Part shown: piece by piece, positions 12,816 through 26,193 of the stretch
Numbering within the stretch: position 1 is the stretch's first letter
How the letters are laid out: each line of letters begins with the position of its first letter
IMG/VR virus record: IMGVR_UViG_3300006065_000007
Coordinates: 84,459-136,948 of that record
Source of the DNA: a virus
Reading direction: 5' to 3' (one strand)
Length of the DNA: 52,490 nucleotides
Made by a program: the position numbers and the translations under genes
The notes under the pieces: model-generated
What the model was told of the DNA's origin: nothing
Seen by the model: only the letters and a program-made list of their open reading frames with translations
Database searches by the model: none

Positions 12816-13797
12816 TTATCTAATCAATTTTTTAAACATTATTTTTATCTCATTAATGTTTTGATTTAACTTAAACTTATCAACAATTTTTAAGGCTTCA
12901 TCTCTTGTTAAATTTGGATTTTCATACCATTCTTCTTGAACAGCATTTAATATATCACTAAATATTTTTGATGGTTTAAATCCCATTTGTATTAAATCTT
13001 TACCGCTGATTGGTAATTTCATATTTTTTTCAGTTATTTGGGAATCTAACTTTTTTATTCGTTCCCTAACTATTTTTATCTGATTTGGCATAGACGATGT
13101 ATCACTATGTGATATATTATCCGCATGTATTAAATCTAATATTTCTTCCAAATTTTCACCAACAGCAGATATAAATTTTCTTAATGATTTATCCGATAGT
13201 TTAGTTGTATCATCCATTCCATGTTTTAATGACATATGATGTTTTACACCTAACGCAACCGAATTGGTTAAATCTTTAGGGTATTTTAATCAATCCATTT
13301 TTTAAATCTGATATACCATTACCTGTTATATCTATTATTTCACCGGTTGAAATATTTTTAAGTAGAGAATTAATCGTCAAATCTCTACGTAAAGCATCGT
13401 CTTTTAATTCACCCGAAGTTACAATAGGTTTTCTTGAACCTGGCTCATATGTTTCCTTTCTAGGTGCAACAAACTCTAATTCAGTTACAGGTAAATTTGA
13501 ATTATTGTTTTTTAATGATAATTTTGCCGTTCCAAATCTTGGATAAATTACTGGATTACTTTCTTTTTTATAATTACCCAATTCTTTTCCCAACCATTCA
13601 GCAAAATCAATACCACTAGTTAATTCCCCTAAAATTAAAAAATCCAAATCTTTAGGTTTTAACCCCATAATTTCGTCCCTAACTGCTCCACCAGCTAAAT
13701 ATACTTTACTCTCCCATTCAGTTTTTTTAATTTTATTTTTTAGAAAATCTAAAATATGTTCCTCGTTAGTAGACTCCTGTAACAATTTTTTTATCAT
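12816..13797 (-). pseudogene. cca: CCA-adding tRNA nucleotidyltransferase, internally deleted and frameshifted
   Basis: The N-part has YLAGGAVRD, KDLDF and DALRRDLTINSL. The C-part has LKYP..HHM..ADN and LPISGKDLIQMG. The central body and HD region are missing at a junction near 13280-13292. Confidence 0.8.
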
Positions 13798-14153: not shown

Positions 14154-14227
14154 GGGTTGGTAGTTTAGATGGCTAAAACACCTGATTTGCACTCAGGAGA
14201 CCGAGGGTTCGATGCCCTTCCGATCCA
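14154..14227 (+). tRNA. tRNA-Ala(TGC)
   Basis: Acceptor GGGTTGG/CCGATCC, anticodon arm CCTGA-TTTGCAC-TCAGG, GTTCGA T-loop. Confidence 0.9.
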
Positions 14228-14298
14228 CAAAACGTTCATTGACATGTTGGAATAAAAAAAAACAAAATAGGGTTATCATTAAGATAACCCCGAAAGAC

Positions 14299-14369
14299 GC
14301 CCTTATCGTCTAAAGGAAGGACACTACTCTTTCAAGGTAGAAATACGGTCTCGGGATCCGTTAAGGGTA
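14299..14369 (+). tRNA. tRNA-Glu(TTC), atypical T-loop
   Basis: Acceptor GCCCTTA/TAAGGGT, anticodon arm CTACT-CTTTCAA-GGTAG. Confidence 0.75.
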
Positions 14370-14406
14370 CTTTTTTTCATTTTGTTTATATTTATTATAT
14401 ATTAAA

Positions 14407-15720
14407 ATGAAACAAATGGACTATTAATGAAATAACATTATTAAAAAATAATTATGAAAAATTTGGAATTAAGAGGATATGTGAAGTAATACCAAATCAT
14501 AGTCGAAATAGTATTTTAAAAAAGGCTCATGAATATAATTTAAAAGTTGATAAAACTATATACTATCATTCTATAAATGAAATTGAAGACGTTGTTAAAT
14601 CTTCGTTATCTTTTTCAGAAGTTTTTAGAAAATTAAATAAATCGAAATCAGGAGATTCTTTTAAGGTATTAAAAAATTTTATTATTAAAAATGGTATTGA
14701 TACTTCTCATTTTGACCCATATAAAAATAATAAATCTAAAATAAAAAAAATATCTATTAATGATTGGTTAAATTATGGAACAAATATAACATCATCTAAA
14801 TTAAAAGAAAAATTGTATCAAGAAAAATTAAAAAATAAAGTTTGTGAATTATGTGGTCAAGATGAAAATTGGAACGGTAAAAAAATGTCACTAATTTTAG
14901 ATCATATCAATGGAATTAATAATGATAATCGATTGGAAAATTTAAGAATTGTATGTCCTAATTGTAACGCCACACTAGATACTCATTGTAAAGGATATAG
15001 GGGTTAAACATCAAGGAAGGTATTGAAAGAGTAAAGAGAAGTAAGCATGGTAGTAATGGACAGAAAAGAGCAAGAAGAGCATTAAAACAAAGAATTGACG
15101 AAACAGTAAAGGAATTATTTAAAGTCGAAACCCCTGATTTGATTGTTGTTGAACAATTAAAAAACATGGGACATAAAACAAAAGCCAAACGTCTATTGGC
15201 TAAAAATATGAGGCGTTCTATCGGTATTTGGAATTGGAAGTACTGGCTTAAAAGGTTACAAGAACACACTGAATTAAACCGTGTTTGGTTTAGAAGTGTA
15301 TCACCTTATTACACCAGTCAAACTTGTCCAAAGTGTAATCACACTGATAGGGGAAATCGAAATGGTGAAATGTTTAAGTGTTTGAGTTGTGGTTACACAA
15401 ACAATGCTGATATAAATGCAAGTATAAACATTTTAAATCGATTTCTCACGGGACAATACGGTGTCCGTTACAAACAAGAAAATCTACTTACCAATTTTTT
15501 GTAGATTTTTTTGAACGGTTTAATTAAAGATAATAATAATAATAATAATAATAAACAAAGAATAAATAAAAGAAAAGTTGAACGTCCTTCATATAATGAC
15601 TTATTAAATTATGTAAATATTAATGGATATTCTGCAACTGGTAGAAAATATGGTGTTAGTGATAATGCTATTAGAAAATGGATTAAATATTATGAAAAAA
15701 CAGAAAATATAATGTTTTGA
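14407..15720 (+). pseudogene. HNH homing endonuclease interrupted by a TnpB element
   Basis: The frame is open from about 14414 (KWTINE...) through CELC..LDHINGINNDNRLENLRIVCPNC..KGYRG and resumes as LIKD..KVERPSY..GRKYGVSDNAIRKW after the insert. The ATG at 14407 is one base out of frame. Paralog of 16451-17131. Confidence 0.8.
15004..15518 (+). mobile_element. tnpB: Truncated IS607/IS200-605-type element carrying the 3' part of tnpB
   Basis: RuvC-II IVVEQL, zinc finger TSQTCPKC..CLSCG and RuvC-III NADINAS. GG occurs at both junctions and the right end is ...TTTTGAACGG. Removing the insert restores the HNH frame. Confidence 0.8.
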
Positions 15721-15732
15721 TAATATATACAT

Positions 15733-15809
15733 GGTGTGTGGGGCTGCTTGGCGTGGCCGTCTGACTGTCACTCAGAAGATTCAGGTGGGTTCGATTCCCA
15801 TACGCACCG
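15733..15809 (+). tRNA. tRNA-Asp(GTC)
   Basis: Acceptor GGTGTGT/ACGCACC, anticodon arm TCTGA-CTGTCAC-TCAGA. Confidence 0.9.
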
Positions 15810-15849
15810 CATTATATGTTCTTTGACATGTTGATACAAATATTTTAAT

Positions 15850-15922
15850 GGTCGGTTCATCTAAATGGATAGGATATGAGACCTTCAATCTCATTATACG
15901 GGATCGTACCCCGTACCGACTG
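15850..15922 (+). tRNA. tRNA-Glu(TTC), second copy
   Basis: Acceptor GGTCGGT/ACCGACT, anticodon arm TGAGA-CCTTCAA-TCTCA. Confidence 0.8.
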
Positions 15923-15932
15923 CATTATAAAT

Positions 15933-16005
15933 GGTGTGATAGCTCCAATGGTAGAGCGAGGGACTGAAAATTCCTGCGTTGGTGGTTCAAGTCCACCTCA
16001 TACCA
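15933..16005 (+). tRNA. tRNA-Phe(GAA)
   Basis: Acceptor GGTGTGA/TCATACC, anticodon loop CTGAAAA, GTTCAA T-loop. Confidence 0.9.
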
Positions 16006-16038
16006 CAATAATTCAAAAAGAATTATTAATTAAATGAT

Positions 16039-16125
16039 GACTCTGTGGCCGAGTTGGAACTAGGCACCACACTTTTAATGTGGGATTCCAAAAGATGTAC
16101 GTGGGTTCGAGTCCCACCGGAGTCA
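16039..16125 (+). tRNA. tRNA-Lys(TTT) with a long variable region
   Basis: Acceptor GACTCTG/CGGAGTC, anticodon arm CCACA-CTTTTAA-TGTGG, 17-nt variable region. Confidence 0.8.
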
Positions 16126-16132
16126 CAAATTT

Positions 16133-16213
16133 CGGAGCGTAACCCTCCATCCTGATAAGATGGCTACGGGTAATTGGTAAGTGTAAATGTCAGTTCGATC
16201 CTGACCGCTCCGA
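16133..16213 (+). tRNA. Non-canonical tRNA-Ile(GAT)-like RNA with rearranged D region
   Basis: Acceptor CGGAGCG/CGCTCCG, anticodon arm CCATC-CTGATAA-GATGG only 7 nt after the acceptor, perfect T arm GTCAG-TTCGATC-CTGAC. Confidence 0.7.
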
Positions 16214-16283
16214 CAACAGTTTATTTTTTTTCATATAACTGTACTATTAGTACATAAAAAATATAAAAAATAAACAAAACATC

Positions 16284-16358
16284 ATAGGTGTGCCAGAGTT
16301 GGTCTATTGGCTCTGATTCCAAATCAGATGTTCGCGGGTTCGAATCCTGTCGCCTATG
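16284..16358 (+). tRNA. tRNA-Trp(CCA)
   Basis: Acceptor ATAGGTG/CGCCTAT, anticodon arm TCTGA-TTCCAAA-TCAGA. Confidence 0.88.
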
Positions 16359-16450
16359 CAAATAATACGGTTTATCTTTAAATAATCCGTATTTCAATTA
16401 GATTACCTAAACTTTTAATAGGGTTCGAAATATTTATATATAAAAAATAT

Positions 16451-17131
16451 ATGAAAACAATAACAAAAGATCAAATGTTAGAGATTATTAATAATTCTAA
16501 ATCTTTAAGAGAAGTTATTATAAAATTGGGTTTATCTACAAATGGGGGAGGTTGTTATAGTAATGTTAAAAATAAATTAAAAAAATTAGGGTTAGAAGTT
16601 CCAAAATATATAGGTGGTAACTATAAAAATTTTGTAAAAACAAGAAAAAAAAATACTGAAGTTTTTATTGAAAATTCAACATACCCAAGACAAAATTTAA
16701 AACGAAGAATTATAAACGAAAAATTAATTCCTTATATATGTAATAAATGTCATAATAATGGTATATGGGAAAATCAAAAATTAAGTTTACATTTAGATCA
16801 TATCAATGGAATTAATAATGATAATAGAATTGAAAATTTAAGATTTTTATGTCCAAATTGTCATTCACAAACTGAAACATATGGTGGAAAAAAAAATAAA
16901 AAGTTAATAGAAGAAAAATATCCTTTAATAAAACTTAAAAAACATACATTATCAAAAATTAAACAATATAAAAGTAAAACCAAACAAAGAAAAGTAGAAA
17001 GACCGTCATATGAACAATTATTAAATGAAATAGAACAACTTGGATATTCAGGAACTGGTAGAAAATATGGTGTATCAGATAATTCAATAAGAAAATGGGT
17101 TAAGTACTATAAAAAAGAAAAGGGGGTGTAG
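16451..17131 (+). CDS. HNH homing endonuclease with C-terminal HTH
   Basis: CNKC..LDHINGINNDNRIENLRFLCPNCHSQT. Its stop codon overlaps the 5' end of the next tRNA-like gene. Confidence 0.88.
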   Translation: MKTITKDQMLEIINNSKSLREVIIKLGLSTNGGGCYSNVKNKLKKLGLEVPKYIGGNYKNFVKTRKKNTEVFIENSTYPRQNLKRRIINEKLIPYICNKCHNNGIWENQKLSLHLDHINGINNDNRIENLRFLCPNCHSQTETYGGKKNKKLIEEKYPLIKLKKHTLSKIKQYKSKTKQRKVERPSYEQLLNEIEQLGYSGTGRKYGVSDNSIRKWVKYYKKEKGV

Positions 17132-17201
17132 TCGGTCCTGACTACGAATCAGGTAACTGTAATTGGATCTGAAAATGTGGGTTCGAATCCCACCACTCTC
17201 T
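17122..17201 (+). tRNA. Non-canonical tRNA-Arg(ACG)-like RNA with rearranged D region
   Basis: Acceptor GGGGGTG/CACTCTC, anticodon arm CCTGA-CTACGAA-TCAGG 8 nt after the acceptor, T arm GTGGG-TTCGAAT-CCCAC. Confidence 0.7.
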
Positions 17202-17227
17202 CGACTATTTATATATAAAGACATAAA

Positions 17228-17602
17228 ATGATAAGAAACACAAAGTTAAAAAGAATTTGTACTAATTGTAAAAAAGATATTAGTACCAATAGTAAAGAAA
17301 AAGAAATTTTTTGTTCTAAAGAGTGTGTTGAAGAATATCGTTCAACAAATAAAACAGATGTTAAAGTTAAAGAAAAAATTTTAGTTGAAGATATTTTAAA
17401 AGACATTAATAACTTAATTGTAGAACAAAATAATAAATGTAAAATTTGTAATGTTTCGTTTGATAAAATTAGACCACATATTTCAGAAACATATGATAGT
17501 AAAATAAAAGGTATTATATGTGAAAAATGTGATAAAGGATTAAAGTTTTTTTCAAATAACATTGGGATTTTAAAAAATGCAATAACGTTCTTAGAAAAAT
17601 AA
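17228..17602 (+). CDS. Endonuclease VII-like protein, probably degenerate
   Basis: QNNKCKIC...KIKGIICEKCDKGLKFF...LKNAITFL. The catalytic DH and N positions appear substituted. Confidence 0.65.
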   Translation: MIRNTKLKRICTNCKKDISTNSKEKEIFCSKECVEEYRSTNKTDVKVKEKILVEDILKDINNLIVEQNNKCKICNVSFDKIRPHISETYDSKIKGIICEKCDKGLKFFSNNIGILKNAITFLEK

Positions 17603-17603
17603 T

Positions 17604-17678
17604 GGGTAGGTGCTCGAGTGGTCAAAGGGAACGGACTGCAAATCCGTAAAGTCATCGGTTCGAATCCGATTCTACCCT
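17604..17678 (+). tRNA. tRNA-Cys(GCA)
   Basis: Acceptor GGGTAGG/TCTACCC, anticodon arm ACGGA-CTGCAAA-TCCGT, U73. Confidence 0.9.
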
Positions 17679-17691
17679 CACTTATATACAT

Positions 17692-17770
17692 GGTGTCTAT
17701 GGTGTTAATTGGTTAGCATGACAGATTGTGGTTCTGTTGGTGACAGGTTCGAGTCCTGCTAGACACACCA
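17692..17770 (+). tRNA. tRNA-His(GTG) with encoded G-1 and CCA
   Basis: Acceptor GTGTCTA/TAGACAC, anticodon arm ACAGA-TTGTGGT-TCTGT. Confidence 0.88.
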
Positions 17771-17772
17771 AC

Positions 17773-17855
17773 ACCGACATTGGACAACGGTTGTCCAGCA
17801 CTCTCATAAGGTGTGTTCTATATGAACATTATCGGTTCGAATCCGATTGTCGGTA
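17773..17855 (+). tRNA. tRNA-Met or Ile2 (CAT) with a variable-arm hairpin
   Basis: Acceptor ACCGACA/TGTCGGT, anticodon arm GCACT-CTCATAA-GGTGT, extra arm GTTC-TATAT-GAAC. Confidence 0.78.
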
Positions 17856-17954
17856 CAAATAAAAAAAAGTTCGGTATAAATTTGGTAATGTAAAAAATAG
17901 TTTGTATATTTGTACCATCAATTAAAAACAAGTTCTTTAAATAATGAAAAAAAT

Positions 17955-18089
17955 AGTGAGTGGTAATCGAAAGAGTTACTTCGTATTTTTAGATCAGTTG
18001 GATAGATCGTAAAATTTAGGTTTTTAATGTCGGTGGTTCGAATCCACCAAAATACAACATTGTAATACTCTTTTAACCTTTCCCTTACT
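17955..18089 (+). ncRNA. tRNA-like cloverleaf (TAG anticodon, 17983-18056) enclosed in a long bulged stem; Y-RNA-like
   Basis: 5' AGTGAGTGGTAATCGAAAGAG pairs with 3' CTCTTTTAACCTTTCCCTTACT. It has its own promoter at about 17906 and a boxA-like motif at 17932. Confidence 0.6.
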
Positions 18090-18098
18090 TTAATATAT

Positions 18099-18171
18099 TG
18101 TGGGGTGTTAGCAGAGGTAGCTAGCCGGGCTCATAACCCGGAGGTCGTGGGTTCAATTCCCACCCCCGCTA
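18099..18171 (+). tRNA. Initiator tRNA-fMet(CAT)
   Basis: 1:72 mismatch and three G-C pairs in CCGGG-CTCATAA-CCCGG. Confidence 0.88.
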
Positions 18172-18368
18172 CAAAAAAAATAAAAAAACTTTGGTATAAA
18201 TTTGGTAATGTAAAAAATAATTCGTATCTTTGTACCATCGAAAAAAGTTCTAAAAAATATATGGCGAGAAAGTTAAAAAAAGAAACTAAGACTAATTTTC
18301 TCTTGAATAGTAGTAATAGATTTAATTACATCGGAAAACAAATAGTATCATAATAAACAAATAACAAA

Positions 18369-25332: not shown

Positions 25333-26193
25333 ATGACACTTTGGAATAACGATACTGAAATTCAATTCTTTACGGAAGCGTTAAAAAACTTTGCTTCTCC
25401 TGAACAATTATTTTATAATCTGCAAGGTGGATACTTTGCTTATGTCCCAAAAGGCTCAGATGCCGAAGGACAAACTTTACAAAGCAGAAGCTCATTAATT
25501 GGACAATTTACAGAAAAATGGAGTAAAACTCTTTTTGAACCAATTGCAAATGAACTGGGACTATTTGCAGTTAACAGTGTAGTATGTGATGAACTCGGTT
25601 TATCAAGACAATCAAGTGCAGACCTTGCTTTTTGCACTACCAATCAGACAAACCAAAGGCCTGAAAACATTATACTGCTTTTTGAAATTAAAATGAGTGT
25701 TGTGTCGAACTACAAGTTTACACAGCCGAATAAAGTTGAATTCATTGGCGATTACAAGCAACATAAAGGCAATCCTGCATTACTGCGTTCTGACTCAATG
25801 TTAAAAGCAATAGGAAAGTCTATAAACATTCGTGTTTCAGGTATCGCTTCTACAAAAATACCAGTTGTAGTTTTGGGTAACAGCCCAATAACTGAAAGTT
25901 ATATTAAGAAAGTAGACTTTCTGAAAACTTCTGGAGTTATTCAAGGTTTTTGGTCGTTAAATCCAAAGCCAACTAATTCAGACTTTGTTAAAAACACTTC
26001 AAAATTAGGATTTCAAACTATCCTAAACGGAGAGCAACTACTTAATAACTGCAAAGAACTTGTAACAAATGATATGAATTATTTTTCTTCTATGATTTCA
26101 AAATTGAAATTGGGTGAAATAATTCGAATTGCAAGCCAAGAAGCAACTGACATTGCTAAAGCAGAGAAATTTTTAAACTTAATCCGAAGCTAA
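25333..26193 (+). CDS. Putative type II restriction endonuclease (PD-(D/E)xK)
   Basis: SADLAF...LFEIKMS, directly upstream of an MTase. A TATCTTTG promoter at about 25310 favours the MTLWN start. Confidence 0.7.
   Translation: MTLWNNDTEIQFFTEALKNFASPEQLFYNLQGGYFAYVPKGSDAEGQTLQSRSSLIGQFTEKWSKTLFEPIANELGLFAVNSVVCDELGLSRQSSADLAFCTTNQTNQRPENIILLFEIKMSVVSNYKFTQPNKVEFIGDYKQHKGNPALLRSDSMLKAIGKSINIRVSGIASTKIPVVVLGNSPITESYIKKVDFLKTSGVIQGFWSLNPKPTNSDFVKNTSKLGFQTILNGEQLLNNCKELVTNDMNYFSSMISKLKLGEIIRIASQEATDIAKAEKFLNLIRS

Follow-up and report, generated by a model that had tools for sequence, protein, structure and literature searches.

Two tRNA-like genes within a viral tRNA cluster

The window analyzed here is a stretch of 52,490 nucleotides (nt) from the IMG/VR virus record IMGVR_UViG_3300006065_000007 (record positions 84,459 to 136,948), corresponding to the terminal 52.5 kb of a 136.9-kb viral contig with an estimated completeness of 44% and a G+C content of 27%. 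It contains a tRNA cluster (14154-18172, + strand) in which two noncanonical tRNA-like genes, a putative tRNA-Ile(GAU) (16133-16213, +, 81 nt) and a putative tRNA-Arg(ACG) (17122-17201, +, 80 nt), lie on the same strand as 12 ordinary tRNA genes. Neither of the two has an encoded CCA. Both genes were found as the initial annotation had described them, with a 7-base-pair (bp) acceptor stem, U8-A9, an anticodon arm of 5 bp and a 7-nt loop, a T arm, no D hairpin, and the motif TAATTGG placed after the anticodon arm.

The acceptor stem of the Ile gene (16133-16139 with 16206-16212) consists of seven Watson-Crick pairs and is followed by T8 A9 (16140-16141) and by the sequence ACCCT (16142-16146), which in the pairing register of the gene family described below would provide the 5' strand of two short helices. 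One of these, helix 1, would contain A16142-T16182 and C16143-G16181 (2 bp), and the other, helix X, would contain C16144-G16170, C16145-G16169, and T16146-G16168. The anticodon arm (16147-16163) has 5 bp and the loop CTGATAA, with the anticodon GAT at 16154-16156. Downstream of it we found GTAATTGG (16170-16177) and the D-loop-like bulge TAATTGGTAA (16171-16180), an invariant motif that would offer equivalents of A14, A15, G18 G19, and U20. The T arm (16189-16205, 5 bp) carries the loop TTCGATC, and A16173 and T16188 are candidate partners for a Levitt-like pair.

In the Arg gene, two of the seven acceptor pairs (17122-17128 with 17194-17200) are G-U. After T8 A9 (17129-17130, the A9 being already part of helix 1), the segment 17130-17135 would act as the 5' strand of helix 1 (17130-17132) and of helix X (17133-17135), as judged from the family covariation. 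The predicted pairs are A17130-T17170 and G17131-C17169 for helix 1, in which T17132 faces T17168, and C17133-G17159, G17134-T17158, and G17135-C17157 for helix X. The anticodon arm (17137-17153, 5 bp) has the loop CTACGAA, with the anticodon ACG at 17144-17146, and is followed by GTAATTGG (17159-17166). The family-invariant 8-nt bulge TAATTGGA (17160-17167) separates the 3' strands of the two helices, with A17162 and T17176 as the Levitt-like pair and A17167 as the equivalent of A20. The A-rich linker GAAAAT (17171-17176), whose role can only be supposed and which is the commonest form in every Arg group, then leads to the T stem, the T arm (17177-17193) having 5 bp and the loop TTCGAAT.

The spacing between A9 and the anticodon stem was just 5-6 nt, and no D hairpin, with a stem of 3-4 bp closing a loop of 7-11 nt, was present between position 9 and the anticodon arm in either gene. 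GTAATTGG was located 5-6 nt 3' of the anticodon stem in both genes, and the segment 3' of the anticodon arm, when folded alone, gave 0.0 kcal/mol in both. The 7-nt anticodon loops of the Ile and Arg types are identical to those of the Escherichia coli Ile-GAU, Arg-ACG, and Arg-UCU isoacceptors.

Covariation of the core within one gene family

We have scanned viral contigs for the exact pattern GTAATTGG-N5-9-AAATG-N4-TTCGA. The scan returned 82 loci, and the layout of the two window genes was common to most of them. A covariance model (CM), named R1, was built from a MAFFT alignment (A1) of 64 distinct family sequences, both window genes included. When run over the fetched loci, R1 gave 111 matches, 96 of them distinct, some of which lie outside the search pattern and carry informative variation. 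These data indicate that the Ile and Arg genes belong to one family, i.e., that they are homologous, and the initial view of "two unrelated sequences" had to be abandoned. The members are 79-82 nt long, many of them encode CCA, and their anticodons are TCT, TCG, ACG, and CCT (Arg) and GAT, TAT, and CAT (Ile-type or Met). The window genes scored 87.7 bits (Arg, E 4e-19) and 62.5 bits (Ile, E 5e-13) with R1, values that are partly by construction since both genes are in the training set. The canonical tRNAs of the window reached at most 21.6 bits, and the best match in five whole bacterial genomes was of 37.9 bits.

The MAFFT alignment was not fitted to any structure, and control registers were generated by sliding the pairing partner by 1-3 columns. 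Over all 23 pairs of the proposed structure, 91.4% were paired, compared with 38-47% in the slid registers. The acceptor stem was 96% paired, with compensatory changes at all seven pairs, the T stem was 96.3% paired, and all five pairs of the anticodon stem covaried. The six new pairs form two sets, with nt 12-14 facing the two bases that precede GTAATTGG plus its G (helix X), and nt 9-11 facing the three bases that follow TTGGA (helix 1). These six were paired in 86.9% of cases, against 15-38% in the slid registers, with a covariation score of 0.517 compared with 0.144 at most. The four variable new pairs displayed every Watson-Crick type: the counts were G-C 33, C-G 14, and A-U 8, and C-G 12, G-C 12, A-U 9, and U-A 5 for pairs of helix X, and one new pair showed A-U 23, G-C 22, U-A 3, and C-G 2. 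A mutual-information scan of the 96 distinct sequences was in line with these figures: 20 of the 21 strongest column pairs were pairs of the proposed structure, including five of the six new ones, the sixth being invariant.

This covariation supports a core in which the D hairpin is replaced by two predicted 3-bp helices around the anticodon arm. Helix X and helix 1 would together make a composite helix of 6 bp, from whose 3' strand the 8 nt of TAATTGGA would bulge out. The alternative connectivity first proposed for the two genes, with a helix around the anticodon arm in place of the D stem and the D-loop motif after it, is borne out by helix X and helix 1, and homologues with compensatory changes do exist. 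Two details required revision. The 4-bp helix drawn around the anticodon arm stands as the 3-bp, covarying helix X, whereas its fourth pair in the Arg gene (T17136-A17156) is formed in only 16 of the 64 sequences. Part of the "17-18-nt linker" is base-paired through helix 1, which had been missed and in which the 3 nt following TTGGA join nt 9-11.

Some alternative pairings were considered and rejected. Neither the fourth Arg pair nor the shifted register of the Ile gene was family-wide. A D hairpin relocated 3' of the anticodon arm was discarded, as the two 3' strands are unpaired with each other and only 7 to 26 of the 64 sequences pair in that register. A 3-bp pseudoknot between ATT of the bulge and AAT of the linker was rejected on visual inspection: covariation was confined to the 15-48-like pair, and the neighboring pairs are broken by variants such as TAGCCGG/AAAAC and TAACTGG/GTGAAT.

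That 15-48-like pair involves base 3 of the bulge and the final linker base. Of the 96 sequences, 91 had A-T and the other 5 had G-C at these two positions, and the neighboring positions did not covary. Such covariation is the signature expected of the R15-Y48 Levitt pair. In addition, T8, the A14-like A, and GG were invariant in the 64 pattern-selected sequences, in which the pattern itself fixes the A and the GG, and near-invariant in the wider set, with a few CM-found members deviating at GG or at A15. The bases of the core partners U8, A14, R15-Y48, and G18 G19 are present, though in a relocated segment, and we infer canonical contacts between them.

The base after GG was A in all 68 readable members with an Arg anticodon and T in 19 of the 22 members with GAT, TAT, or CAT; in the latter group, the discriminator was A in 22 of 22. 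In bacteria, A20 is the main determinant for arginyl-tRNA synthetase (ArgRS), and A73 and U20 are listed for isoleucyl-tRNA synthetase (IleRS) (PMC9976931). The match of the conserved base after GG and of the discriminator to these determinants argues for a working tRNA rather than a decoy.

The core of the Ile gene was near-identical in loci L050, L045, L041, L004, L167, and L168, whose acceptor, anticodon, and T stems differ from those of the window gene by compensatory changes. The AC/GT pairing of its helix 1 recurred in another Ile subfamily (L056/L057 type). A second pattern scan aimed at Ile-type relatives recovered near-identical cores only. We have also noted shorter relatives of 76-79 nt with the anticodons GAT, TAT, and CAT (L057:4121-4197, L041:513-588, L037:4761-4837, and L057:5269-5347). 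These keep the helix around the anticodon arm and TAATTGG, have a linker of 4-6 nt, and apparently lack helix 1; they may represent a second sub-architecture of the same idea.

Distribution, detection, and genomic setting

A search for the pattern in 596 Gb of bacterial and archaeal genomes produced 68 hits, only 4 of which were family members, all on small contigs (3.3-16.5 kb) of metagenome-assembled genomes. On this basis, the noncanonical class is essentially phage-borne. Members were present in isolated phages, namely the Pseudomonas PA11/IME180 group, Pseudomonas phage Boevelstad, Maribacter phage Panino, and Felix O1, and none of the corresponding records annotates them as tRNA. The Felix O1 member (25951-26029) is divergent (41 bits) and has the anticodon TCT and an encoded CCA; an annotated HNH endonuclease open reading frame (ORF) starts within it (L163, record position 26003). 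A blastn search of isolated phages with the Ile gene gave no match, blastn being insensitive with an 80-nt query, and the isolate members were obtained through the Arg gene and the CM.

Two further observations concern individual members. One member (53 bits) was located in a 636-kb uncultured huge phage (L165, LR756504.1 309819-309896); this phage is the best DNA match to the tRNA region of the window, and its family member sits elsewhere in that genome. In Boevelstad, the noncanonical Arg(TCT) gene is preceded, at a distance of about 300 nt and on the same strand, by an annotated RNA ligase gene (L083 62-1192).

The initial annotation had anticipated that standard scanners would miss or mis-score the two genes, and this was indeed the case. 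ARAGORN missed both with default settings, and at an 80% threshold it called the Arg gene with wrong ends. The Rfam tRNA model (RF00005, gathering threshold of 29 bits) did not match the Ile gene even at E<=10; it aligned the Arg gene at 33.2 bits by leaving out the D arm and placing a 20-nt insertion ahead of the T arm. No Rfam family other than this general tRNA model matched the two genes. The same model passed 13 of 28 members in 16 other loci, all with 30-42 bits, and ARAGORN by default called 13 of the 111 family matches, several with the wrong identity.

The canonical genes of the cluster have the anticodons Ala TGC, Glu TTC (two copies), Asp GTC, Phe GAA, a type-II TTT, Trp CCA, Cys GCA, His GTG, Met CAT (two copies), and Leu TAG. 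ARAGORN made 10 tRNA calls in the cluster and the Rfam tRNA model 13, and neither found another Ile or Arg tRNA there. The type-II gene (16039-16126, +) encodes a tRNA of 88 nt whose variable region is long and whose D stem has 3 bp, as in the bodies of Leu, Ser, or Tyr tRNAs, and its anticodon loop CTTTTAA contains TTT (Lys); AAA is the commonest phage codon (2,787 of about 33,700 counted). One of the Met(CAT) calls (17773-17856, +, 48.6 bits with Rfam) is 84 nt long, which is unusual for a class-I tRNA.

Several ORFs are interspersed with the tRNA genes. An HNH endonuclease-like ORF of 226 amino acids (aa) (16451-17131, +) lies between the Ile and Arg genes; it showed a weak Pfam HNH match (19 bits, under the cut-off) and blastn similarity to annotated phage HNH endonucleases. 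The Arg gene begins 10 nt ahead of the end of this ORF, so that the final 10 nt overlap, and the Ile gene begins 6 nt past the preceding tRNA. A 64-aa HNH ORF (14813-15007, +) and a 124-aa endonuclease VII-like ORF (17228-17602, +) were also found. The cluster further contains a 121-aa ORF (15139-15504, +) that matched the Cas12f1-like/TnpB TNB domain with 66.6 bits and looks like a fragment of an IS200/IS605-type transposon-associated nuclease. Beside the cluster, the region 12816-13797 (-) matched Pfam PolyA_pol, the head domain of CCA-adding enzymes and poly(A) polymerases (78.9 bits), in an ORF that ends after 173 aa; the ORF that follows, in a different frame, had a weak tRNA_NucTran2_2 match. 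Here, adjacent to a cluster whose tRNA genes do not encode CCA, a tRNA nucleotidyltransferase gene may have been split, frameshifted, or mis-assembled.

Interpretation and comparison with known tRNAs

We consider it probable that both genes are working, host-charged tRNAs with a non-cloverleaf core. They would be transcribed together with the phage tRNA cluster and charged by the host IleRS and ArgRS, the Ile tRNA reading AUU/AUC and the Arg tRNA reading CGU/CGC/CGA. The 92 long ORFs of the phage contain 1,741 ATT/ATC and 270 CGT/CGA/CGC codons. No ArgRS or IleRS gene was found in the 137 kb of the phage record, and charging would therefore fall to host enzymes. Of the 78 members in loci holding five or more canonical tRNAs, 67 had no canonical neighbor with the same anticodon, and large clusters contained complementary Arg sets, such as canonical TCG and CCT with noncanonical TCT.

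In the proposed fold, no D hairpin would form past U8, and nt 9-14 would act as a single splint strand. Its lower half (12-14) would pair with the 3 nt ending in G before TAATTGG, and its upper half (9-11) with the 3 nt after TTGGA. The TAATTGGA bulge would carry the equivalents of A14, R15, G18-G19, and position 20, and would be followed by the A-rich GAAAAT and a normal T arm. The anticodon stem, one mismatch layer, helix X, and helix 1 would be stacked in place of 26-44, the D stem, 8-14, and 15-48. The layer between the anticodon stem and helix X was purine-U (G-U or A-U) in 40 of the 64 sequences. Counting the anticodon stem, this purine-U layer, helix X (3 bp), and helix 1 (3 bp), the stack would have 12 layers, the same as in a canonical tRNA, so the distance from anticodon to elbow could be kept. 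An L-shape of normal length would result, in which GG would meet the T loop; A14, R15, and GG of the bulge would serve the core and elbow, and its position 20 the synthetase, and the A-rich linker may occupy a groove, like a variable loop. Support for such a rebuilt L-shape is indirect only and comes from the Levitt-like covariation and from the kept T loop and GG.

Several points weigh against this reading. RNAalifold applied to the MAFFT alignment returned only the classical acceptor, anticodon, and T stems and did not call the two 3-bp helices. The case for these helices is made by pair counts and mutual information and not by energy. None of 500 shuffles reached the covariation score of the six new pairs, a figure in which independence is overstated because the sequences are related. 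Helix 1 has a U-U mismatch in the Arg gene. In the Ile gene, it has only 2 bp, and the initial register (ACCC/GGGT, 16142-16145 with 16168-16171) and that of the family are indistinguishable, given that the core of the Ile subfamily is almost invariant. In the Arg type, a single base (A) lies between GG and helix 1, and the combination of a coaxial helix 1 with a canonical G19-C56 pair looks strained. Lastly, for both genes, we infer transcription, end processing, CCA addition, and charging from the sequence.

Different roles for the two genes were also weighed. They could be decoys or sponges that mimic Arg and Ile tRNAs and occupy a host tRNA-targeting nuclease, or another tRNA-binding defense protein, without being used by the ribosome. 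The phage-restricted distribution, the canonical anticodon loops retained on an altered body, and the 11 of 78 members that coexist with a canonical copy of the same anticodon would suit this role, and phage tRNAs are known to counter tRNA-cleaving defenses (PMC10264068, PMC11555353). Nevertheless, synthetase identity bases would be superfluous in a decoy, and yet A20 tracks the Arg anticodons and A73 the Ile-type ones with no exception among the members read. The anticodons mostly fill gaps in the canonical set and seldom duplicate it, and the complete 7-bp acceptor stem is kept, along with an encoded CCA in many members. We regard a decoy role as improbable. Still less likely is that the two elements are just tRNA-like cutting sites for RNase P and RNase Z, punctuating the cluster transcript. 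The position of the Ile gene 6 nt past a tRNA, the adjoining endonuclease ORFs, and the better conservation of the acceptor/T half, which both enzymes read, are compatible with it, whereas the compensatory changes that uphold all five pairs of the anticodon arm, the restriction of the anticodons to Arg and Ile types, needless for a mere cutting site, and the retention of the Levitt-like pair and the GG motif are not what it would predict. No conserved member with a lost anticodon arm was seen among the 96 distinct sequences.

Two further explanations treat the genes as derived from, or giving rise to, ordinary tRNAs. In one of them, insertion or repair around the HNH gene would have rearranged two ordinary tRNA genes into decayed or scrambled pseudogenes. 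HNH-like ORFs do abut the window's Arg gene, an HNH endonuclease ORF overlaps the Felix O1 member, and the folding energies of the two single sequences are unimpressive on their own (z -2.3 and -1.4). However, 96 distinct sequences, taken from many unrelated contigs, share this architecture and show compensatory changes in each stem, and most members lack an annotated adjacent HNH gene in the isolates examined, which makes decay extremely unlikely. We give equally little credit to a cut-and-religate route in which the transcripts, as precursors from intron-bearing or permuted genes, would mature into an ordinary cloverleaf. Algae and archaea (Cyanidioschyzon merolae, Nanoarchaeum) do have tRNA genes that are circularly permuted or split, the 3' half being encoded upstream of the 5' half or the two halves residing in separate genes. 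Their noncanonical order of parts is processed, with joining at a bulge-helix-bulge motif, to a canonical mature tRNA. In addition, a phage RNA ligase gene is located just upstream of the Boevelstad member. In the phage family, by contrast, both acceptor strands are already terminal, ending one 80-81-nt unit in the normal order, and no simple processing restores a cloverleaf: the canonical order would need the anticodon arm to be moved past the D-loop motif, which by our reasoning neither intron removal nor circular permutation can achieve. Moreover, the two extra helices covary, as in a mature structure.

The preferred reading of a working tRNA with a non-cloverleaf core can be set against the known classes. 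With canonical tRNA-Arg and tRNA-Ile (RF00005), the family shares the 7-bp acceptor stem, U8, the 5-bp/7-nt anticodon arm with U33 and A37, the 5-bp T arm with a TTCGAAT-type loop, the GG and A14/R15 motifs, the R15-Y48-type covariation, A20 (Arg), and A73 (Ile). It differs in having no D hairpin, the would-be strands flanking the anticodon arm and both pairing with nt 9-14, in a D-loop motif that forms a bulge 3' of the anticodon arm, and in a "variable region" that is an A-rich linker from helix 1 and not from the anticodon stem. The D-armless tRNAs of metazoan mitochondria, such as mt-tRNA-Ser(AGY) and the Ascaris mt-tRNA-Ser(UCU) (PMC7609411), likewise lack a D hairpin and need special models in tRNA finders. 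These functional tRNAs are shortened, have a short unpaired connector for the D arm, and have lost the GG/T-loop elbow contacts, whereas the phage molecules, which exceed the normal length and would serve bacterial translation, retain the D-loop motif together with a complete T loop and a Levitt-type pair. Their two covarying helices, invariant GG-bearing bulge, and length of 80-81 nt place the window genes outside the mitochondrial type. Allo-tRNAs and other "novel cloverleaf" tRNAs (8/4 and 9/3 acceptor/T branches; PMC5389517) are also noncanonical and sequence-mined, and some occur in phages. They alter the lengths of the acceptor and T stems and keep the order of the arms, while in the phage family, the stem lengths are canonical and the order of elements has changed. 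A full-text literature search found no published description of the fold, most subscription journals lying outside its coverage, so that a prior description is possible. Phages receive no mention in a 2020 review of noncanonical tRNAs (PMC7609411).

As to why phages would keep such a fold, we tentatively propose, as a possibility that we rate rather low, that they maintain a second tRNA fold accepted by bacterial synthetases, EF-Tu, and ribosomes because the altered core hides or protects Arg and Ile tRNAs from a host factor recognizing the canonical D-arm/variable-loop core, be it a tRNA-cleaving defense nuclease or a tRNA-modifying or -degrading enzyme.

If the proposed fold is correct, bacterial translation would include tRNAs that arrive at the L-shape along another strand path, with the identity bases and elbow motifs kept. 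The tRNA inventories of phages would be undercounted, which affects studies of codon usage and defense evasion. As phage isolates and their hosts exist, how much of the tRNA core the translation machinery needs becomes directly testable. Should the escape from a host factor also prove true, this second fold would be a natural scaffold for orthogonal tRNAs.

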